Below are positions 2,830 to 62,789 of a DNA stretch of 64,000 bases, piece by piece. Position 1 is the first letter of the stretch. Every line of letters starts with the position of its first letter. The notes under the pieces were generated by a model, which was not told the origin of the DNA, ran no database searches, and saw only the letters and a list, made by a program, of their open reading frames with translations. Both the position numbers and the translations under genes were made by a program. Origin of the DNA: Dehalococcoidia bacterium (GTDB taxonomy: Bacteria; Chloroflexota; Dehalococcoidia; Lucifugimonadales; UBA3495); assembly GCA_965204905.1 (NCBI GenBank), contig OZ242042.1, positions 1,282,778 to 1,346,777 on the forward strand. The letters are read 5' to 3'.

Positions 2830-3972
2830 CTAGACGCCCGTGGGCGTCTTCTCTATCTCCTCCATCAGCGCGTCCAGCATCTCGGCCTCTGCCACCACGC
2901 GCACCTTCTCCCCCTTGCGGAAGATAATGGCCCGGCCCGCGCCGGCGGCGATCCCCACGTCCGCGTCCTTGGCCTCACCCGGCCCGTTGACCTCGCAGCC
3001 CATCACGGCGACCTTGACGTTCTTGTCCGTCCCTTTCAGCAGCGCGTCCACGTCGTTGGCCAGCTTGCGTATGTCCACGTCCGCGCGGCCACAACTGGGG
3101 CAGGCCACCATTACCGCGCCCTTGTCCCGCAGGTTCAACGATTTCAGAATCTCGTACCCCGCGATCACTTCCTCCACGCTGTCATCGCTCAACGACACCC
3201 TGATGGTATCGCCGATCCCCTCGTACAGCAGCACACCCAGGCCCACGGCAGTACGGATCGAACCGGACTTGGCGGTGCCCGCCTCGGTAATGCCCAGATG
3301 CAGCGGGTACGGGACCATCTCGCTGAGCTGCCGATAGGCTTCCACGGTGGTCGGGACGTCAAAGGCTTTCATGGAGATTTTGATCTGCTCAAAGTCCTGC
3401 TCTTCCAGCAGGCTGATTTCCCACAGCGCGGTCGCGACCATGTGGTCAACCACGCTGTAATCGCCTTCCTGGGCCTCGCCCGCCTTGGGCAACTGGTTCA
3501 CCAGGTCCATGTGCCGCGAGAACCCTCGCGTCCGACCGATGCCTCCCACCGGCGGCAGGCTGCCGAAGTTCACGCCGATCCTGATGGGGATGTTCCGCTC
3601 TTTGGCCGTCTTCACCACCTCGCGCACCTGGTCCTCGTTCCGCAGGTTCCCTGGATTCAGACGCAGGCAATCCACTCCGCCGGCCGCGCACTCCAAAGCC
3701 AGTTGATAGTGGAAGTGTATGTCGGCAATCAGCGGGATGTTGATCTGCTTCTTGATTTCCGCCATCGCCTTGGCGGCTTCCATGTCCGGCACTGCCGAGC
3801 GGATGATCTCGCAGCCCGCCTCTTCCAGCTCGTGAATCTGCCGCACCGTGGCCCTGACGTCGCGGGTGTCCGTCTTGGTCATCGACTGCACCGTGATGTC
3901 GGCTCCGCCGCCGACCTTGACGCCGCCTACGTACACCGGCTTGGTAACGCGCCGCTTGGTCATCGTCATCAT
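2830..3972 (-). CDS. ispG: 4-hydroxy-3-methylbut-2-en-1-yl diphosphate synthase (flavodoxin), MEP pathway
   Basis: 380-aa ORF with a typical GcpE sequence (VYVGGVKVGGGADITVQSMTKTDTRDV, CPSCGR). Confidence 0.95.
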   Translation of the reverse strand: MMTMTKRRVTKPVYVGGVKVGGGADITVQSMTKTDTRDVRATVRQIHELEEAGCEIIRSAVPDMEAAKAMAEIKKQINIPLIADIHFHYQLALECAAGGVDCLRLNPGNLRNEDQVREVVKTAKERNIPIRIGVNFGSLPPVGGIGRTRGFSRHMDLVNQLPKAGEAQEGDYSVVDHMVATALWEISLLEEQDFEQIKISMKAFDVPTTVEAYRQLSEMVPYPLHLGITEAGTAKSGSIRTAVGLGVLLYEGIGDTIRVSLSDDSVEEVIAGYEILKSLNLRDKGAVMVACPSCGRADVDIRKLANDVDALLKGTDKNVKVAVMGCEVNGPGEAKDADVGIAAGAGRAIIFRKGEKVRVVAEAEMLDALMEEIEKTPTGV

Positions 3973-4932: not shown

Positions 4933-5193
4933 AATCAAAAATCCCCCAACTACTGACACCCTCCCCTTGCAATACCGCACGCACGTTCTCTACACTGTAC
5001 TCCACATCGGTCGCCAAGCCCCTGGCCAGGGCCCAACGCCCGACACCGGCCAAATCCAAAATCGGGTCATCAGAGGTTCAGGATTCACGTTGCGCCCCCG
5101 GCGCAACACCACGGTCAAACCAAGTCGGATTTACATGCAACGCCGGCTCGCGCCTGAGGACGACCTATTCATCGTCATGGCCGAGACCGGTAC

Positions 5194-5223
5194 GGCGGGT
5201 GTCACCACCGCTCCGCGAGGGCC
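5194..5223. repeat. 30-nt repeat module GGCGGGTGTCACCACCGCYCCRCGAGGGCC
   Basis: 28/30 identical to the reverse complement of 59969-59998. Here it is fused directly to the CCCTCTCCC hairpin module. Confidence 0.8.
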
Positions 5224-5230
5224 GCAAGTC

Positions 5231-5265
5231 CCCTCTCCCCTGGCGGGAGAGGGTTAGGGTGAGGG
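5231..5265. repeat. hairpin repeat CCCTCTCCC-loop-GGGAGAGG-nTnGGGTGAGGG
   Basis: Stem 5232-5239 / 5245-5252. Same architecture in inverse orientation at 15984-16018. Confidence 0.8.
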
Positions 5266-5607
5266 GGAAATCCCTCATCGACCAATACGGTCAGCACGCG
5301 GAAGTCTAGGACGCAATATCGCATACCACGCTCTGGCCGTAGCGCCGACGATTCTGAACCTCGCCGACCCGAATCAATCATCAATAATCCAGCAACTAGG
5401 AGAACCCAGAAAAAAGAAAACCGCGCAACCGTCAAACCAGGAGCGTTAATCCACAATGGGGACCGTCCCGTACCATCGCCACAAGGCCGACGAGCTTCTG
5501 AACCGTGCCGACTGCGCCATCGCCTTGCGCGATCCGCTCATCCTGAGCTCGTCGAAGGAGGCCGTCTCCGCACCCGGCTTTTTTGCACTCTCAAACCGGC
5601 ATTGGAG

Positions 5608-12187: not shown

Positions 12188-12676
12188 TTAGCCTCTCAGG
12201 CGCGCCCGTTCTCTTCCCTCAATGAAATGAATTGCCTCATCCGCATTTATCCGTCCCACGGGACCACTCGCGTACATGGCGCCTAGCACAGTCCCACCGC
12301 GTCCCAGCAGGAATTCAGTGGGCTGAATGTAGCCGCCGCGATCTTCGGACCACCAGGAACCCAATAGATCCGCGTCTTCTCTAGTAACGCCATACGCCAT
12401 GGGGAAAGACACCCCGGACTTTTCGGCCATCTCCTGAACGACTTCCTTCGGTTCGACGCTGGCGCCGATCATAGTGAGCCCCATCTCGGCCAGCGCATCC
12501 TTCTGCGATTCCCAAGCGGCTAACTGCCGCGAGCAATAGGGTCACCACACTCCACGGTAGAACATCACTGCCAAATACCGTGAGGACATGTCCCCCGGCA
12601 GCTCCAGCGTGTTCCCGTCAATCAGGTTGAGCGTAATCGGCGGCAGTCGGTCGCCTTGTTGCAGTTTCTCGCCCAT
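12188..12676 (-). CDS. peroxiredoxin-like (AhpC/TSA, Prx-like2) thiol oxidoreductase, probable selenoprotein with a U-x-x-C redox motif
   Basis: The ORF track shows only the last 98 aa. Own translation from ATG 12676 (SD AAGGGAG) gives MGEKLQQGDRLPPITLNLIDGNTLELPGDMSSRYLAVMFYRGVW-TGA-PYCSRQLAAWESQKDALAEMGLTMIGAS..., in frame with ORF 12188..12484. The TGA (12542-12544) replaces the first Cys of the family FYRGxWCPYC motif. Confidence 0.75.
12504..12535 (-). promoter_or_regulatory. candidate bacterial SECIS hairpin downstream of UGA 12544-12542
   Basis: The mRNA reads UGACCCUAUUGCUCGCGGCAGUUAGCCGCUUGGGAAUCGCAG. Apical stem GCGGC/GCCGC with loop AGUUA, 11 nt after the UGA, extendable by UGC/GCA across an internal loop. 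Confidence 0.35.
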
Positions 12677-12700
12677 AGCGATGCTCCCTTCGTCGGCCTG

Positions 12701-13183
12701 TCAACTCTGCGGACGTTCCGGCCAGAACAGTTCGTAAAGACGCTCCGATAGTTCCTCGCACAGTTCCAGCCCGTCGGTAACTTCTTCAGTGGACTGTTCA
12801 TCCTCGTAGAAGTTGCTATGCAAAACGCGGGCGATATTGAAGGAATTGTTAATCCATCTGCGCGTGTTGATGTCGCCAGACTCGTCCACCAGTCCGGACA
12901 ACTGCCGAACCACCTCCCAAATGGAACGGTGCTGGTGAATGATGCCGCCGTGCCGCGCGCTGACCGCCTTTACGGTTTCGGCTACCATACCCCACGCCTT
13001 GTTGGACGCCTGCGGCAAGTCGCCGTCCTCTCGCAAGTGCCTCCACGCGCTGGCGCGGAAGTTCCGGCTGAGACTGGCGTATTTTTCCGGCGTCCGGCCG
13101 GCATCGTCGGGCTGAGCGCGATCACGGGCGGCGTCCAGCCCTCGGGCTACGGCGGCGGCGATGGCGTCATCGGCGAATGTCAC
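12701..13183 (-). CDS. PaREP1-like / HEPN-superfamily helical protein
   Basis: GTG start 2 nt after the upstream LLM stop (the track's longer form would overlap by 52 nt). ASNKAWGMVAETVKAVSARHGGIIHQHRSIWEVVRQL resembles the PaREP1 family core. This is recall-based. Confidence 0.5.
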   Translation of the reverse strand: MTFADDAIAAAVARGLDAARDRAQPDDAGRTPEKYASLSRNFRASAWRHLREDGDLPQASNKAWGMVAETVKAVSARHGGIIHQHRSIWEVVRQLSGLVDESGDINTRRWINNSFNIARVLHSNFYEDEQSTEEVTDGLELCEELSERLYELFWPERPQS

Positions 13184-13185
13184 GG

Positions 13186-14409
13186 CTAATTCCCAACCGC
13201 TTCCGCGGTTTCGGACTTGAGCTTCTCCGGCCACCACGGGTCATCGTATTCGTTGAACAGACCCTTCATGTGGGGCATAACCTCGTTGGCGAACAGGTCT
13301 GTGTTCTTCTTGACCAGTTCCGGCGGCATACTGCCGATTTGCAGCAGCACCATCAGGTGGCCGATCCGCAGCAACTCGCAGGCTTCGGTAAGCTTGCGCC
13401 GTACGGTTTCGGGGCTGCCGCCGATAACGTGTCCCTGCTCGATGTAGTCTTTCCAGCTGTTTTCCTTGGCCGTCCGCTGGGCCTCTTCGCCCATCTGGGG
13501 CCGCAACGACTTGCGGATGGAATCCAGCGAACGATAACCAGGGGATTCGGCGAATGGCGGGTACACGCGCAACATCTTTTCGTAGAAGTACTTGACGTGT
13601 TCCTCGTAGTCCTGCTCCGCCTGCTCGTCGGTCTCTGAAACGCAGACCAGTTGTAGGAATCCTAAGCGGTGCGGGTTGTCGTCAATGCCCCGCTCGGCGA
13701 CCCGTTCCCAGTAGCCCTTCACGATGTTGTGCCCGCGCAGGTAACCGTAGTAGGACAGGTAGCAGTACACGTAGTCCCGGTCCAGCACCCAGTCCCACGT
13801 CTCCAGGCTGCCGGATCCGGGCACCCAAACCGGCGGGTGCGGCTCCTGCATGGGCCGTGGCCAGATACTGATGTAGCGCAGCTTGTTGTATTTGCCGTTG
13901 AAAATCGTGGGATGGTGCTGTGTCCAGGCTTGCATGACCACATCATGAGCCTCGGTGTGCCGGTCGCGCAGTGTGATCGGAACCTGACCGTATGAGAACG
14001 TCGTGTCCATGGACGTCCCCACCGGGAACCCGGCTACTAGTCGTCCGCCCGAGATAACGTCAATCATCGCCATCTCTTCGGCGACACGGACCGGAGGGTT
14101 GTAGAGCGCCAGGCTGTTGCCCAGCACGATCACGGCGCCGTTGTTGGTGCTGTTGGCCAGTACCGAGGCGATGAGGTTGGGCGACGGCATGATGCCGTAG
14201 GCGTTGTTGTGGTGCTCGTTGACGCAAATTCCATCGAAACCCACCTCGTCGGCGTACCGCAACTGGTCGATGTATTGAGCGTAATACTCGTTGCCTTTGG
14301 CGGGATCGAAATTCTCGTTAGGCAGATCAACCCAGGCGGAATGATGCTGCTCGGCGAAATCGTCGGGCAGGTCCTGGTAGGGCATCAGGTGGAAAAAGGA
14401 AACTTTCAT
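13186..14409 (-). CDS. LLM-class flavin-dependent oxidoreductase
   Basis: 407-aa ORF. MKVSFFHLMPY..., EVGFDGICVNEHHNNAYG and GGRLVAGFPVG are typical of the luciferase-like monooxygenase family. Confidence 0.9.
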   Translation of the reverse strand: MKVSFFHLMPYQDLPDDFAEQHHSAWVDLPNENFDPAKGNEYYAQYIDQLRYADEVGFDGICVNEHHNNAYGIMPSPNLIASVLANSTNNGAVIVLGNSLALYNPPVRVAEEMAMIDVISGGRLVAGFPVGTSMDTTFSYGQVPITLRDRHTEAHDVVMQAWTQHHPTIFNGKYNKLRYISIWPRPMQEPHPPVWVPGSGSLETWDWVLDRDYVYCYLSYYGYLRGHNIVKGYWERVAERGIDDNPHRLGFLQLVCVSETDEQAEQDYEEHVKYFYEKMLRVYPPFAESPGYRSLDSIRKSLRPQMGEEAQRTAKENSWKDYIEQGHVIGGSPETVRRKLTEACELLRIGHLMVLLQIGSMPPELVKKNTDLFANEVMPHMKGLFNEYDDPWWPEKLKSETAEAVGN

Positions 14410-14478: not shown

Positions 14479-15069
14479 CTACTGCGCCGGGCTGGCCGGC
14501 GGGGGGAAGAGATCGGTCACCGGGCAGGCGAAACCGGGCAATACGGGTTCTGCGGTGACGGTATCGCTGTAGCGGAACACCGTGGCCCGATCGGGCCACA
14601 GCGCAATGATAGTGCGATGTGGGGGGATTACCAGCCAAACCAGTTGCACTCCAGCCGCGAAGTATTCCTCCACCTTGTCCCAAACGTCCAGCGTCATATT
14701 GTTGGGAGAGATGACTTCCACCGCCATTATGGGCACCAGAGCCAGGATTGCTTCCGGGCCCGTAGGAAGATCGCCTTCTAAGACCGCCAAGTCAGGACGT
14801 CGAGTGCGGTTACGGTTTGCGCCTACGTCGAACAGAGCTTCCGCGAAAACTCTAATCGGAAGGCGATTTTCCGTCCGCTGTTCCAAAGCCCGCCATATAA
14901 GACGAACCACCTCGGCGTGAATGAGCATCTCCGGTGTCATGCCCATTTCATCACCATCCCACACGTGCTTTTTGACGATGCGGCCATCAAGCAACTCGCA
15001 GCCTCGGGTAATGTCTCTGGGCAGGGCAACGAATTCTTCCCAAGAGTACAGCTGTTCGGTGGTAGTCAT
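14479..15069 (-). CDS. Uma2-family (DUF820) PD-(D/E)xK nuclease-fold protein
   Basis: MTTTEQLYSWEEFVALP...CELLDGRIV...RPDLAV...AVEVISPNN...KVEEYFAAGVQLVWLV...LPGFACPVTDLF. A TTG at 15114 is an alternative start. Confidence 0.8.
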   Translation of the reverse strand: MTTTEQLYSWEEFVALPRDITRGCELLDGRIVKKHVWDGDEMGMTPEMLIHAEVVRLIWRALEQRTENRLPIRVFAEALFDVGANRNRTRRPDLAVLEGDLPTGPEAILALVPIMAVEVISPNNMTLDVWDKVEEYFAAGVQLVWLVIPPHRTIIALWPDRATVFRYSDTVTAEPVLPGFACPVTDLFPPPASPAQ

Positions 15070-15110
15070 CTGAACGCCCCGAATATTAGCGTGTGCCGGC
15101 GAAGCAGAGA

Positions 15111-15953
15111 TCAACCCGCGAGCCAGTTCTTGACCGCCGCGATGAAGTCAGCGGGGTTGTCCTCGAAGACCATGTGCCCGGCTCGCTCGATTTCCACCAG
15201 AGTGCCCTGCGCCAGCGTGTCGATCATCTGCCGCGCCGTTTCTTCGGTCAGCAGGTCGGTTTCCGTGCCGCGTACCACCAGCGTCGGGCAGACGATGCGT
15301 TCCAGGGCCGGCCATAGATCCGCCGCTGGCGCCGCCGTGCCGTTGATGCGCTGTTCTCGGATGGCCGGATCAAATTTCCAACCGATTTTGCCGTCGGAGG
15401 TTTCGTAAGTCTGCCCGCCCAGGCGTCGCCGCATAACCGATTCGGACGCGAACCGGTTGCCGGTCTGGACGTGGGCCAGGGCGTCCTCGAAGTTGTCGAA
15501 CTGGGGCGGCAAGCTCCGCAGTTCCTCGGTGATCCGGTTCCCGCCCGCCGGTTCGATGCGCGGGCCAATGTCCACAATGCAGAGACGCTCCAGTCGTTCC
15601 GGATTTTCGCCGGCGAAGGCCATGCTGTTCCGGCCGCCCATGGAATGGCCAAATAGGATGAACTTGTCCAGCCCTATGGCGTCCACGAATCCAGCGAGGT
15701 CTGCGACAAAGGCGTCGGTGGAATAGTCGCCGCCCGGAGCGTGGTCAGTGTCGCCCCGGCCTCGCTGGTCAAGAGCATACACGTGGTAGTCGCCGCATAG
15801 CGCTTCTGCCACGTCTTCCCAAACTCGGGCGTGGCCGCGCAGTCCGTGCAATAGCACTAGGGGCGGAGCGCCCTCTGCGCCCCATTCCAGGTAGTGAATG
15901 TTGATTCCGTTGGCGGTCAGAGTTTTGCTGCTGGGTTGTACCTGTGTGGTCAT
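15111..15953 (-). CDS. alpha/beta-fold hydrolase
   Basis: 280-aa ORF. HGLRGHARVW, nucleophile elbow GHSMGG, C-terminal GHMVFEDNP. Confidence 0.85.
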   Translation of the reverse strand: MTTQVQPSSKTLTANGINIHYLEWGAEGAPPLVLLHGLRGHARVWEDVAEALCGDYHVYALDQRGRGDTDHAPGGDYSTDAFVADLAGFVDAIGLDKFILFGHSMGGRNSMAFAGENPERLERLCIVDIGPRIEPAGGNRITEELRSLPPQFDNFEDALAHVQTGNRFASESVMRRRLGGQTYETSDGKIGWKFDPAIREQRINGTAAPAADLWPALERIVCPTLVVRGTETDLLTEETARQMIDTLAQGTLVEIERAGHMVFEDNPADFIAAVKNWLAG

Positions 15954-24869: not shown

Positions 24870-25457
24870 ATGACTACCCAAACGCGCAAAATTACCGTGG
24901 ATGAGTTCTGGGAGATGGCCGCCGACCCCGGCCATCGCTACGAACTGGTCGATGGAGAACTGGTTGACATGGATGGCGCTCCCAGACACGGCAGGATGAC
25001 AGGCCACATATTCGTATTGGTTAACAGCCACATTACGCTGAACGATTTGCCGCTGGACGCTGGTGTCACTACGGGTTTCCAGATGGACCCTTATACCTTG
25101 AGAGTCCCGGATGTTCATGTCACCCGGTGGGACCGGATGGCAGAATATGACGAGGATGCTGGCGGCTGGCCTCGATTCGCGCCCGATGTGGCGATTGAAG
25201 TGGTGTCCCCCAGCAACACGCCGGCTGAGCTGGCCCGCAAAACCGAGGAATATTTCGCCAACGGGGCGCAGGCCGTTTGGATTGCTGACCCGGTTCCCCG
25301 TACCGTGGCGATCCGCCGCCCCGTTGCGCCGGAGCAGGTTTTCGGCGTTGGTGATGTCTTGACCGGCGAACCGGAAATACCCGGATTTACTTGTGATGTC
25401 GCCGAAATTTTCGCTATCCTGGACCGGATGCCAAAGCCCGGCGCAGAAGGTAACTGA
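24870..25457 (+). CDS. Uma2-family (DUF820) PD-(D/E)xK nuclease-fold protein embedded in the nuo operon
   Basis: ITVDEFWEM...YELVDGELV...VPDVHV...APDVAIEVVSPSN...KTEEYFANGAQAVWIAD...IPGFTCDVAEIF. Lies 47 nt after nuoH and 2 nt before nuoI. Confidence 0.8.
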   Translation: MTTQTRKITVDEFWEMAADPGHRYELVDGELVDMDGAPRHGRMTGHIFVLVNSHITLNDLPLDAGVTTGFQMDPYTLRVPDVHVTRWDRMAEYDEDAGGWPRFAPDVAIEVVSPSNTPAELARKTEEYFANGAQAVWIADPVPRTVAIRRPVAPEQVFGVGDVLTGEPEIPGFTCDVAEIFAILDRMPKPGAEGN

Positions 25458-42792: not shown

Positions 42793-43335
42793 TTACCTAT
42801 CCACCAGACACGCAATCGCCTGTGGCGCGGCCGTTGCCGCGCGTTCCGACAGTTCGGAGTCGTTGAGGGTGACGATGGGGTGCTCTACGATGGCCAAGCC
42901 GTACTCCGGGTCGCCGCGCATCCGGGACATGGCGTGCGCCTGGCTGATGAACGGACGGGTGGTCAGCACGGTTGAGGGGATGCCCAGCAGTTCGGTTTCC
43001 ATTGCGTCGTGCACACTGCACGCGGTGCAGGACCCTCATTCAGCCGTGGCGTGTATCGCTACGTCAATGCTCTTGGCGGTGCGTTGCAGGTCCTCAATGC
43101 GGGCCGGCCACTGCCAGCCGCCCTTGTTGTGCTCAACGGTGCCGGCGATGTCGTAACGCTCGCCGATGATGGCGGCGATACGTCGCAGCAGGTCTTCCGA
43201 GTGGGGCTTGTTGTTGGCGAACAAGCCGATTACCTTGCCGTCCAGAGTCGCCGGCCGTTGCGCCAGGCGCGCCGGAGCCTGCGGCCCGTCGTCGCGGGGG
43301 TCCAGCGTCACGATTGGTGAGTTCTGCATTGTCAT
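42793..43335 (-). CDS. UGSC-family protein, probable selenoprotein (Sec at the in-frame TGA 43036-43038)
   Basis: ORFs 43036..43380 and 42793..43014 are in the same frame, separated only by a TGA. Read-through gives ...SIDVAIHATAE-U-GSCTACSVHDAMETELLGIPSTVLTTRPF..., that is the U-G-S-C motif. Likely start MTMQNSP at 43335 (GAGGAG SD). Confidence 0.75.
43006..43033 (-). promoter_or_regulatory. candidate bacterial SECIS hairpin immediately 3' of UGA 43038-43036
   Basis: The mRNA reads UGAGG-GUCCUGCAC-CGCGUGCAGU-GUGCACGAC. Eight base pairs with one C.C mismatch and a 10-nt loop containing GU. Confidence 0.35.
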
Positions 43336-56118: not shown

Positions 56119-56703
56119 ATGACGCAACCCAAAGCAAAGCCGCGTACCAAGTTGACCAACGCGGACTATATGGCGATGACGCCGCCGGCGAACACGGGGC
56201 CGCGCTACCAACTTATCAACGGGGAGCTGATTCAGATGGCCGGAGCTAGTGACGCTCATCAAGTGTTCCTGATGTGGTTGTGCTCGGCACTGATGTCGCA
56301 GGTGTATGCTTTGGTCATAGGCGAAATCCGCATTGCCGCATACGACGTACACGTTGACCCTTTCAACACTTTCCAGCCCGACCTGCTGTACGTGTCCAAC
56401 GAACGGCAACACATTTTCAACGTCGATGGCCGCGGCATTACCGGCGCGCCGGACGTGGTAGTGGAGATATTGTCTGAGTCCACCCGGCGGCGGGATCTCA
56501 GCGAGAAGTTGCCCGTTTATCTCAACGCCGGCGTCAAGGAAGTCTGGGTTGTCGATCTGGATGCCGCCACAGTGGCAATCCACTCTGGAGATGCCATGAC
56601 TCCTGTGGCTGTGTTTGCCGCTGAGGATACACTGACCTCGGATGCGATGCCCGGTGTTGCAATTGAGTTGGCGCCAATTTTCGCACGCGCAGTTGGCGTG
56701 TAG
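56119..56703 (+). CDS. Uma2-family (DUF820) PD-(D/E)xK nuclease-fold protein
   Basis: YQLINGELIQM...QPDLLYV...APDVVVEILSEST...KLPVYLNAGVKEVWVVD...MPGVAIELAPIF. Confidence 0.8.
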   Translation: MTQPKAKPRTKLTNADYMAMTPPANTGPRYQLINGELIQMAGASDAHQVFLMWLCSALMSQVYALVIGEIRIAAYDVHVDPFNTFQPDLLYVSNERQHIFNVDGRGITGAPDVVVEILSESTRRRDLSEKLPVYLNAGVKEVWVVDLDAATVAIHSGDAMTPVAVFAAEDTLTSDAMPGVAIELAPIFARAVGV

Positions 56704-59364: not shown

Positions 59365-59931
59365 AGAACGGAAAAAGTGGCCGAGCACCTCCCGTTGACT
59401 ACAGCCTGGGGGCATATCGTCGGGACTGGCTCAGGCCAGGCGCTCCCACGGCGCCCGCGGGACATCGCTTACCGTTGCTGCCGTCAAGCCCTGGCGGAGT
59501 TCACGAGCCTGCGCCGCGTGGGACCCGGCCGTCAACGCCACTCCCTGGGAAATTGGCCCTTGCGCCTTGCCGAGGGGAGGAATTCCACCCCGCTGTGGCG
59601 GGTTGCGGGTATAGGGCACCGCCAGCTCCCCGTGTAGCACGACCACTGCAAACATGGTATGCGGGCATGGGCTGGGTGTCAAACGCCGGCGGCGCCGGGC
59701 GATTGTTCAGAGTTGGGGTACTCCGGTCACGGGGCAGACTGTTCTTGTGCGGAATGATGATTTGGGTCAGCGGGTGGTTTTGGGGTTCCTCCGATTTGAG
59801 CGATTGGGTTTTGGGATTTTTCGGTGTCAGGTTGGTGGTTCGGGTCGAGTGTCGGAGCACGGCCAACACTATTTTTTTGCAGAGTTTGCGTCCTAGATTT
59901 CCACGTGCTGGCCGTTGCCCCGCTCCGCCGG

Positions 59932-60962: not shown

Positions 60963-62789
60963 TTACTGGCAAAACTCCAGGCCAAGCCGATGCAAGTCGT
61001 TCACCACTACCGTCTGTAATCCCGGCGGTACGCACCCCGTCAACTGGTTGCCTCCTAATTGCAGAAGCCACAGTTCCGAGAGGCTGCCCAGCTCTGCCGG
61101 AATCGCTCCGGTCAGCAGGTTGTCATACAGGAACAGCCGCTCTACGTTTGTGAGTTGACCCAGCTCTGCCGGGATCTCCCCGGTCAGAAGGTTTTTCGAA
61201 AGACTCATGAAGGCCAAGTTTGAGAGAGCGCTCAACTCCACCGGTATAGGTCCACTCAGTGCGTTCCTGCTCAGGGCAAGTTGTTCCAGGTTTGAAAGAT
61301 CTCCCAACGTGATAGGTATCACGCCATTCAGGCGGTTCCCATCGAGGTCCAGTCTTTTTAGGTTTGATAAATCGCCGAGCTCCGCCGGGATCGGTCCGTC
61401 CAATTGATTGTAATCCAACTCCAACCGCTCCAGATTGGAAAGATTCCCCAACTCAGAAGGTATCGCGTCGCTCAGCTGATTGCCACCGAGGTACAACTCT
61501 TCTAGGTTCGAAAGGTTGCCCAATTCCGCCGGAATCGCTCCGCTGAACTGGTTGAAACTGGCGTTGAGATACGTCAAACCGTCGAGCATCCCTAGTGCTG
61601 TTGGAATTTCTCCGCTCAATTGGTTGTCATACAGGCGCAACCGTTCCAAGTTGGCAAGATTACCTAACTGAGCAGGAATGGGGCCGCTCAGTTCGTTGCC
61701 AAAAAGACGCATATCCTGCAAGTTAGACAGGTCGCCCAGTTTAGCGGGAATCGGACCGTTCAACTGGTTATTGCCAAGACTCAAGTAGGTCAGACTGGCG
61801 AGGTTGCCTAGCTCTGCCGGGATCGGTCCGCTCAACTGGTTGCTGTATAGATCCAGCGATTCTAAGTTGGCTAGATTGCCCAACTCGATGGGGATCGTCC
61901 CGCTTAACCGGTTGTCATACAGGCTCAACTGTTCCAGGCTAATGAGGTTGCCCAGCTCTGCCGGTATCGGCCCGCTCAGCCGATTATCGTTTAGGCTCAG
62001 GCGGGTCAAGTTGGTGAGATTCCCCAGATCTCCCGGTATCGGCCCTTCTAACCGGTTTCCCCAGAGCCTGAGATTGGTCAAATCCGTCAGGTTGCCCAGT
62101 TCCGATGGTATGGGCCCGCTCAACTGGTTGGAGTTGAGGTCCAGGGAGGTCAAGTTAGCCAAGTCACCTAATGATGCTGGAATTTCACCTTCCAACCGGT
62201 TGCGATACAGGCCAAGCCAAGTTACGCAACCGTCTCTGCTGGCGCCTACCCCAACCCACGTGTCCACCGGGTAGTCGCTCAGCCAGTTGTCTTTCCTCAA
62301 CCAATCGTCTCCGTCAGTGGCGTTGTAAAGTTCCACCAGCACGTCCCGGTCTCCGGCGCACGCCTCGCTGACACCAACCGCAAATGGACCAAACCACGAC
62401 GGCGCCCATTGCGGTTCACTGTAGCGCGTCTCGCTGCTGGCTACTGTGAAATAGTAGGGTTCGCCCACCGTGAGGTTCTTCACCGTATAGGTAGTTTGAC
62501 CTAGATTCTCAACGCTAGCCATTTGCATGGCATCCCGCCAGTCCCGTCCTTCACTGACCACCGCTCGGACATTGTCCGCAGTGGCCCAAGCGATACGATA
62601 AAATCCGGCCTCAGGTACTGCGTTCCAACTAACGATTACCTCGCCAGGGTTGTCGCCGTTTTCCACCGTCGGAGTATCGGGGGCGGCGAGTCCGCCGCCG
62701 TCCTGTGCTGTAACCGACGTCGTGCTTCCGCCGGCGATGGACAACGCGACAACTAGTAAAAGGGCAACCGCTATAGCTGGGTATTTCAT
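60963..62789 (-). CDS. secreted leucine-rich repeat protein (signal peptide + FN3-like domain + about 17 plant-type 24-aa LRRs)
   Basis: 608-aa ORF. MKYPAIAVALLLVVALSIAGG, then repeated LxxLxxLxLxxNxLSGPIPAELGNLxN units (72-bp DNA periodicity). Confidence 0.85.
   Translation of the reverse strand: MKYPAIAVALLLVVALSIAGGSTTSVTAQDGGGLAAPDTPTVENGDNPGEVIVSWNAVPEAGFYRIAWATADNVRAVVSEGRDWRDAMQMASVENLGQTTYTVKNLTVGEPYYFTVASSETRYSEPQWAPSWFGPFAVGVSEACAGDRDVLVELYNATDGDDWLRKDNWLSDYPVDTWVGVGASRDGCVTWLGLYRNRLEGEIPASLGDLANLTSLDLNSNQLSGPIPSELGNLTDLTNLRLWGNRLEGPIPGDLGNLTNLTRLSLNDNRLSGPIPAELGNLISLEQLSLYDNRLSGTIPIELGNLANLESLDLYSNQLSGPIPAELGNLASLTYLSLGNNQLNGPIPAKLGDLSNLQDMRLFGNELSGPIPAQLGNLANLERLRLYDNQLSGEIPTALGMLDGLTYLNASFNQFSGAIPAELGNLSNLEELYLGGNQLSDAIPSELGNLSNLERLELDYNQLDGPIPAELGDLSNLKRLDLDGNRLNGVIPITLGDLSNLEQLALSRNALSGPIPVELSALSNLAFMSLSKNLLTGEIPAELGQLTNVERLFLYDNLLTGAIPAELGSLSELWLLQLGGNQLTGCVPPGLQTVVVNDLHRLGLEFCQ

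Follow-up and report, generated by a model that had tools for sequence, protein, structure and literature searches.

On the minus strand of a 64-kb stretch of a Dehalococcoidia contig (hereafter the window) lies a gene for a peroxiredoxin (Prx)-like protein whose reading frame is interrupted by a TGA in the active site, and which we consider here as a putative selenoprotein gene, the UGA being read as selenocysteine (Sec, U). The full-length coding sequence (12188..12676, minus strand) consists of 162 codons and a TAA, and it is predicted to encode a Prx-like thiol:disulfide oxidoreductase with the motif U45-P-Y-C48. Its extent is supported by Pfam matches of the protein with Sec replaced by Cys (U to C), by tblastn, and by the ratio of nonsynonymous to synonymous substitutions (dN/dS). 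The ATG start codon occupies 12676-12674 and the terminal TAA 12190-12188, and a Shine-Dalgarno sequence, AAGGGAG (12684..12690, minus strand), could be read 7 nt upstream of the ATG. The translation runs MGEK...FYRGVW*PYCSRQL..., or, in a longer form, MGEKLQQGDRLPPITLNLIDGNTLELPGDMSSRYLAVMFYRGVW-TGA-PYCSRQLAAWES…RARLRG (162 codons).

Four features of the coding sequence, all on the minus strand, recur in what follows. The in-frame TGA, which we infer to specify Sec, is codon 45 (12542..12544) and takes the N-terminal position of a UxxC motif; it is TGA in all 81 sequences that we aligned and Cys in more distant homologs. The second position of the motif is Cys48 (codon TGC, 12533..12535), a candidate resolving or partner Cys that is invariant (81/81) and aligns with the peroxidatic Cys of Prx. 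Beginning exactly 11 nt past the UGA is a 15-nt hairpin, GCGGC-AGUUA-GCCGC (12516..12530), with a 5-bp stem (GCGGC/GCCGC) and the loop AGUUA; its frozen synonymous sites and its pairing point to a bacterial-type selenocysteine insertion sequence (SECIS) core. Finally, the codon for Pro119 (12320..12322), the predicted cis-proline of the thioredoxin fold, lies within an invariant Q118-P119-x-E121, where true peroxiredoxins have their catalytic Arg. Re-reading the minus strand reproduced every coordinate given in the initial annotation for the ATG, the Shine-Dalgarno sequence, the TGA and the hairpin at 11 nt. A mechanical list of open reading frames (ORFs) holds only two fragments of the gene, 12542..12676 (44 aa) and 12188..12484 (98 aa). 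Standard annotation splits the gene in two because the active-site TGA most likely codes for Sec.

We compared the U-to-C protein with Pfam. AhpC-TSA (PF00578) matched with an E-value of 4.9e-18 (65.7 bits; cutoff 26) over residues 6-130, that is, across the TGA, and Redoxin gave a further match (1.9e-11), bearing out the earlier assignment to the AhpC-TSA/Redoxin family. NCBIfam returned sub-threshold matches only, to a ResA model (27.4 bits; cutoff 170) and a BCP model (32.3 bits; cutoff 140). The closest relatives in a search of 5.8 billion proteins (75-98% identity) were truncated calls of 94-119 aa that start past the TGA column and that, where named, come from metagenome-assembled genomes (MAGs) of Dehalococcoidia or Chloroflexi. 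Full-length relatives (~165-176 aa) in the same search share just 51-61% identity with the window protein. Seven full-length relatives (P0013, P0017, P0021, P0024, P0029, P0030 and P0058) have Cys in the Sec column, within FYRG[TH]WCPYC. The proposal that the TGA stands in place of the first Cys of a CxxC motif thus holds, as Cys-form homologs read FYRGTWCPYC, and three Cys-form homologs examined at the DNA level have TGC or TGT in the column. The same column is Ser in one protein and Trp in four proteins from the Joint Genome Institute (JGI; P0002, P0003, P0005 and P0012), entries that derive from 1-2 kb contigs. The DNA of P0003 (L081:841-1338) has TGA at its Trp position, and its Trp is therefore a translation-table artefact. 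The Trp of the other JGI entries probably also results from an alternative genetic code, a database artefact able to mislead alignments.

A tblastn scan for orthologs, with one genome per species, retrieved 80 loci, which with the window make up the 81 sequences. All 80 come from MAGs of Dehalococcoidia, Chloroflexota or SAR202, many of them complete chromosomes. The matches in the 80 genomes cover residues 1-162, and every one of the 80 has TGA in this column; across the 81 sequences the column is kept down to 59% protein identity. Such conservation is far beyond chance. The orthologs thus share the in-frame UGA, and the coding sequence on either side of it is conserved as well. An alignment limited to the region downstream of the TGA would have spoken against the initial annotation; instead, the homologs span both the TGA and the part upstream of it.

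The part upstream of the TGA has the properties of translated sequence. The orthologs all begin with M/V-x-EKLQQGD, and the sequence 5' of the start diverges completely. Selection was estimated by the Nei-Gojobori method over all sequence pairs. The 41 codons before the TGA gave a dN/dS of 0.138 with a proportion of synonymous differences (pS) of 0.66, and the 123 alignment columns past the hairpin (codon 55 to the end) gave 0.192 with a pS of 0.62. Purifying selection upstream of the TGA is as strong as downstream. In codons 46-54, which contain the hairpin, dN/dS was 0.212 and pS 0.35, so that synonymous sites are near saturation except within the hairpin. Purifying selection on a background of near-saturated synonymous sites rules out that the locus is a pseudogene, the product of a sequencing error or a pair of independent genes. 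TGA is nevertheless a working stop codon in this DNA: of the 38 ORFs of the window with Pfam support, 14 end in TGA, and the Prx-like gene itself has TGA as its terminal stop in 20 of the 81 orthologs. Since one UGA of such an mRNA is decoded and another terminates, decoding is context-dependent.

We then looked at the codons that form the hairpin. Their choice is frozen: Arg50 is CGG and Gln51 is CAG in 81 of 81 sequences, Leu52 is TTG or TTA in all 81 and CTN in none, and Ala53 is GCC in 79, the remaining two having GCT, which preserves a G·U pair. Elsewhere in the gene, other invariant Arg columns are CGG in 11-37 of 81 sequences (entropy 1.5-2.3 bits), other Gln columns are CAG in 25-65 of 81, and other Leu columns are mostly CTG. 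Pairs were counted on the 81-sequence alignment (A3), in which the five upper pairs are 98.6% paired. Four stem pairs are never broken, three being invariant and one being G·U in two of the sequences. Covariation is seen in the closing pair, which is G·C in 56 cases, U·A in 20 and broken in 5. The U·A state combines a third-position T in codon 49 (AAT, GTT or GCT, for three amino acids) with a change from Ala to Glu at codon 54, and in the G·C state a third-position G (TCG, GCG, CGG, AAG or CAG) is coupled to Ala. When the register was slid as a control, pairing in a 6-pair version fell from 91% to 25-50%. A sixth pair further out (columns 17-33) forms in just about half of the sequences and is unsupported. 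The loop, AGUUR, is invariant save for R. The hairpin at 11 nt past the UGA that the initial annotation had pointed out is thus conserved at synonymous sites and covaries. It also has the form that is required of selenoprotein genes, namely a stem-loop that directly follows the UGA and whose small apical loop contains a G (as worded in PMC1088965).

The Cys-form homologs served as a control for these features. In the three available at the DNA level, the Leu codon is CTA or CTG and the loops are AGCUA or ACCUG, without the TTR codon and the GU loop; the energy of a hairpin in the same register is -9.7 kcal/mol in the window and -2.7 to -3.4 kcal/mol in the Cys forms. This control, which comprises three sequences, two of them closely related, agrees with the hairpin being tied to the UGA.

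The use of Sec in this lineage is documented from other sources. One of the loci that carry an ortholog (L032) belongs to SAR202 cluster bacterium bin87, and for SAR202 bin87 Table S4 of a sponge metagenome paper lists SelA (COG1921) = 3 and SelB (COG3276) = 1 (PMC5649159). In BSepDB, two Dehalococcoidia MAGs with 49 and 46 selenoproteins rank in the top ten of bacteria by selenoprotein number (PMC13326102). The window itself holds a second TGA-interrupted redox gene (42793..43335, minus strand; TGA at 43036..43038), which matches Pfam PF24696 UGSC at 1.3e-41 and, below the curated cutoff, NCBIfam NF041046 'UGSC family (seleno)protein' at 2e-31. Its minimum free energy fold contains a 6-bp hairpin, CGUGCA-GUG-UGCACG, 13 nt past the UGA and with G-U in the loop, a distance like that in the Prx-like gene. 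The second independent case claimed for the window accordingly belongs to a curated selenoprotein family. In a scan of TGA-joined ORF pairs of the window in a redox-like context, only the Prx-like gene and the UGSC gene were credible; the other pairs were set aside by the look of their translation and, where checked, by their position (opposite a supported gene, or at a normal stop), without a systematic check. Outside the window, a TGA-interrupted Prx/TlpA-like gene (…VVLFAWASW*ACREQLPVW…) lies beside a Cys-form homolog (L082:4181-4912, plus strand), and the gene caller output for it is a 41-aa AhpC-TSA fragment only. It probably encodes another UxxC selenoprotein; the organism's ortholog of the gene studied here has Cys.

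We next considered the fold and the active site. An AlphaFold model of the Cys-form relative P0013, which is 53% identical to the window protein, has a thioredoxin/Prx fold (predicted local distance difference test score, pLDDT, 89; predicted template modelling score, pTM, 0.85), with C-P-Y-C at the N-terminus (N-cap) of helix 46-57 and a C-terminal helix at 146-171. Foldseek placed this model nearest to BCP-type peroxiredoxins (Bcp4, PDB 3hjp, E = 7e-13, template modelling (TM) scores 0.79/0.86), with ResA just behind, and ResA was the best PDB match by sequence (E = 1.4e-5). The Prx motif P-x-x-x-T-x-x-C_P aligns with R41-G-V-W-U45-P-Y-C48, in which Pro is replaced by Arg41, Thr by U45, and the peroxidatic Cys (C_P) corresponds to C48. 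The catalytic Arg of Prx (Bcp4 'KRSVFVID') aligns with the invariant Pro119, which is itself aligned with the cis-Pro of ResA ('LPTSFLID'). Thr/Ser and Arg of the canonical Prx triad are therefore absent, and only the peroxidatic Cys is kept. The motif W-U-P-Y-C is a thioredoxin-like UxxC and not the TxxU of Sec-containing Prx, and the alignments with 3c71 and 4nmu, together with the model, place W-U-x-x-C at a helix N-terminus next to a cis-Pro loop, as in the active site of ResA and TlpA. The fold is Prx-like and the active site thioredoxin/ResA-like. The N-terminus, MGEKLQQGDRLPPITLNL, is hydrophilic as read from the sequence, without a predictor, and the domain starts at residue ~6, which is not what is found in the extracytoplasmic ResA and TlpA; the protein is therefore probably cytoplasmic, unlike these two.

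Comparison with the proteins of known structure makes the mixed character of the active site clear. In ResA/TlpA/CcmG (PDB 3c71, 4nmu), W-C-P-x-C (WCPHC in the ResA example) aligns with W-U-P-Y-C, and the cis-Pro motif 'PT.FLID..G' aligns with 'QPTEFLLGRGG'. These proteins, however, are membrane-anchored, extracytoplasmic and use Cys, whereas the protein studied here is predicted to contain Sec, has no signal or anchor that could be read from its sequence, and carries a C-terminal helical extension (the helix at 146-171 of the P0013 model). BCP/PrxQ, represented by Sulfolobus Bcp4, is the closest in overall fold, and Cys48 aligns with its peroxidatic Cys, in the Bcp4 segment T-S-V-S/C; in contrast to BCP/PrxQ, P-x-x-x-T-x-x-C reads R-G-V-W-U-P-Y-C and the catalytic Arg is Pro119. 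With both the Prx motif and the Arg replaced, the protein is not a canonical Prx. A ResA/TlpA-like site that lacks the Thr and Arg of Prx makes it more likely that the protein acts as a thiol:disulfide (selenol:disulfide) oxidoreductase than as a classical peroxidase.

From these data we consider it very probable that the UGA at codon 45 encodes Sec in a Prx-like UxxC oxidoreductase. The hairpin would most likely be a bacterial SECIS that recruits SelB·GTP·Sec-tRNASec to the ribosome, where Sec would be inserted at the UGA; the conservation and covariation of the hairpin are observed, and its binding by SelB is what we infer from them. In the protein, a Sec45 selenolate at the N-terminus of helix alpha-1, as positioned by the Cys-form model, may attack a disulfide, a sulfenate or a peroxide. 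Resolution of the intermediate by Cys48 would then yield an intramolecular selenenylsulfide, which a reductase of the thioredoxin or glutaredoxin type could recycle. One Cys-form locus shows an arrangement of interest in this respect: a 402-aa fusion of glutaredoxin and pyridine-nucleotide-disulfide oxidoreductase (L083:1771-2979, plus strand) ends 22 nt before a Cys-form gene (3001-3504). This glutaredoxin-flavoprotein fusion may be the reductase that specifically serves this Prx-like subfamily.

Several observations weigh against the interpretation as a selenoprotein gene with a functional SECIS. We found no SelA, SelB or SelD among the ~48 Pfam-annotated ORFs of the 64-kb window, no tRNA gene and hence no tRNA-Sec in the window, and no tRNA-Sec in the 60 flanking loci scanned (L001-L060); the Sec machinery of this genome is taken from the outside evidence on the lineage described above. 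Folding of the post-UGA region as a single sequence was no better than that of shuffled sequences (z = +0.65 for 71 nt and -0.68 for 48 nt), and a permissive Rfam scan of 12440-12600 produced noise only, with no match to a SECIS model. The hairpin is short, the evidence for it is comparative, and the covariation of its closing pair may stem from a few evolutionary events. An extended lower stem, CCC/GGG, round the hairpin was also considered and was rejected, being 69% paired with no covariation. The selenium in the protein is a prediction from sequence, and so is its role: we give reduction of disulfides or sulfenates, as against peroxidase chemistry, somewhat better than an even chance. Any role tied to the neighbouring monooxygenase has to reckon with the fact that this link is confined to one clade, more distant orthologs having other neighbours, among them MarR and a metallo-beta-lactamase-fold protein.

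The alternative that is compatible with Sec insertion concerns the chemistry. The selenoprotein could act as a peroxidase, with Sec45 as the peroxidatic residue (glutathione peroxidase (GPx)-like chemistry on a Prx fold), and detoxify H2O2 or organic hydroperoxides, such as might escape from the monooxygenase encoded beside it. Selenols are known to react fast with peroxides, the best structural matches are the BCP-type peroxiredoxins, AhpC-TSA is the top Pfam family, a luciferase-like (LLM-class) monooxygenase is adjacent in 52 of the 80 loci, and a MarR-type regulator lies upstream in one distant lineage. We nonetheless rate a disulfide reductase above a peroxidase, since the Prx triad has lost two of its three residues (Thr to Sec, Arg to Pro119); moreover, W-C/U-x-x-C with a cis-Pro is a ResA/TlpA signature, ResA is the best PDB sequence match, and the literature classes the family as thiol:disulfide oxidoreductases. 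We regard peroxidase function as the less likely of the two.

The remaining alternatives dispense with Sec. If the hairpin merely stimulated readthrough of the UGA, with near-cognate insertion of Trp or Cys, one would expect what was seen in the window, namely no Sec machinery and a hairpin that matches no curated SECIS model. But the UGA sits at the nucleophilic Cys of a CxxC that is Cys in homologs, where Trp would destroy the redox centre, and the combination of Cys/UGA pairing with a hairpin at the canonical 11-nt spacing and a small G-containing loop is what is standardly asked of a selenoprotein gene. The listing of SelA and SelB for a genome that carries an ortholog (PMC5649159), the documented richness of the lineage in selenoproteins (PMC13326102) and the UGSC gene in the same window point the same way, and such readthrough appears very unlikely. 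A true stop at the TGA would mean that the locus is a pseudogene, that it is misassembled, or that it holds two small genes (for a 44-aa peptide and a 98-117-aa protein). Gene callers and public annotations do take the TGA as a stop and give only products of 94-119 aa, at times with a separate 44-aa ORF. The TGA, however, recurs unchanged in 81 independent assemblies, some of them complete chromosomes from long reads, and the 41 upstream codons are under purifying selection in the same frame. A split would also part beta-1 of the thioredoxin fold from the active-site helix and run through the middle of the CxxC, and the downstream ATG (M65) is not kept in distant orthologs. We find a true stop barely credible. 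Genome-wide reassignment of TGA (code 4 or 25, to Trp or Gly) could account for the Trp shown at this codon by the JGI-derived proteins P0002, P0003, P0005 and P0012, but those calls come from 1-2 kb contigs with TGA in the DNA of P0003, and TGA ends 14 of the 38 supported ORFs of the window as well as 20 of the 81 orthologs of this very gene; the probability that we attach to reassignment is negligible.

With Sec at codon 45, the gene would be a member of a family that has been catalogued since 2004-2005, the Prx-like UxxC selenoproteins, named 'Prx-like protein' in the Sargasso Sea study and 'Prx-like 1, pfam00578, UxxC' in the Global Ocean Sampling (GOS) study (PMC1088965, PMC2398784, PMC13188914). 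By the counts in these sources, the Sargasso Sea data contain 22 members, and GOS contains 225 Sec forms alongside 2,740 Cys forms; a 2026 review describes the family as 'predicted with high confidence', not as experimentally verified (PMC1088965, PMC2398784, PMC13188914). Common to this family and the studied gene are PF00578, UxxC rather than TxxU, abundant Cys homologs, a marine bacterial origin, and a stem-loop right after the UGA with a G in the small apical loop; our assignment is made by these shared described features of the family, whose published exemplar is WP_010940744.1. The studied gene differs in representing a distinct Dehalococcoidia/SAR202 ortholog group, with the motifs FYRGxWUPYC, GGYIQPTEFLLGRGG and MYASGPVGR and with a nucleotide-invariant SECIS core, CGGCAGUURGCCG. 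In the fdhF-type SECIS of E. coli, the hairpin lies within the coding sequence, its minimal upper stem-loop stands ~11 nt past the UGA, and the apical loop contains G-U. The hairpin studied here resembles it in all three respects, but its stem is limited to 5 bp, it has no bulged U, a lower stem is unsupported and Rfam gives no match.

The studied gene is thus very probably a real but ordinary selenoprotein gene, a lineage-specific addition to a catalogued family in a lineage already known as Sec-rich, and the UGSC family is equally well known. In every public record that we found, the gene is truncated ('redoxin domain-containing protein', 94-119 aa, without the active site), split into two ORFs, or given Trp at the Sec position. 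It is therefore predicted that hundreds of Dehalococcoidia/SAR202 MAG annotations, and the redox inferences derived from them, miss a functional selenoenzyme. In the distant orthologs, for instance, callers emit a 44-aa N-terminal ORF and a separate ORF of 116-119 aa (L085:4857-4991 and 5001-5360; L087:4848-4982 and 5001-5351). The 81-sequence alignment provides a clean, covariation-supported minimal SECIS for the phylum and could help to calibrate bacterial SECIS predictors, which still miss ~13% of entries according to BSepDB (PMC13326102). The practical value lies in correcting a systematic mis-annotation and in the comparative definition of a minimal SECIS; no concept is changed.

Upstream of the Prx-like gene lies its conserved neighbour and possible operon partner, the LLM-class flavin monooxygenase (13186..14409, minus strand; Pfam Bac_luciferase, 1.1e-32). 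It is found upstream in the 52 loci at 95-99% amino acid identity, and in several of them it ends ~27 nt before the Prx-like start. A PaREP1-like gene (12701..13237, minus strand) is placed between the two; it is present in 39 of 80 loci, and its stop in the window lies 24 nt before the Prx-like ATG. The order enoyl-CoA hydratase, α/β-hydrolase, (Uma2), LLM-class monooxygenase, (PaREP1-like), Sec-Prx-like, convergent aminotransferase is kept in ~50 of the 80 genomes, and in two loci (L085 and L086) a MarR-family regulator is directly upstream. Across species in which the monooxygenase is 95-99% identical, the Prx-like protein is 74-96% and the aminotransferase 78-94% identical (L001-L049); the monooxygenase is either unusually constrained or recently spread. 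A functional link between the Prx-like gene and the monooxygenase may exist but is weak, and a role in protecting or servicing the monooxygenase is speculative. SAR202 luciferase-like flavin monooxygenases are thought to drive the oxidation of recalcitrant organic matter. One could imagine the Sec-Prx-like gene as a lineage-specific accessory of these enzymes, clearing hydroperoxides or repairing oxidised thiols, with the minimal 13-nt SECIS core CGGCAGUURGCCG defining a Chloroflexota-type SelB site; we think this improbable as a whole.

The rest of the window is ordinary chromosome, with a nuo operon, enolase, DnaB, L9, RecJ, KsgA, signal recognition particle (SRP) RNA and four luciferase-like monooxygenases. 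The bacterial large-type SRP RNA (59381..59642, minus strand; Rfam RF01854, 138 bits) is the sole Rfam match in the window at gathering thresholds. Three small genes, variable in their presence like the PaREP1-like gene, encode putative endonucleases of the Uma2 family (14479..15114, minus strand; 24870..25457 and 56119..56703, plus strand), and one of them lies in the nuo operon, with the NADHdh (nuoH-like) gene on one side and the 4Fe-4S (nuoI-like) gene on the other. A 608-aa leucine-rich-repeat protein is encoded at 60963..62789 (minus strand). Eukaryote-like leucine-rich-repeat proteins are typical of sponge symbionts, and its presence is in keeping with the names of the closest MAGs, which derive from sponges (IRC4_bin, RHO3_bin, SB06xx_bin and bin87).

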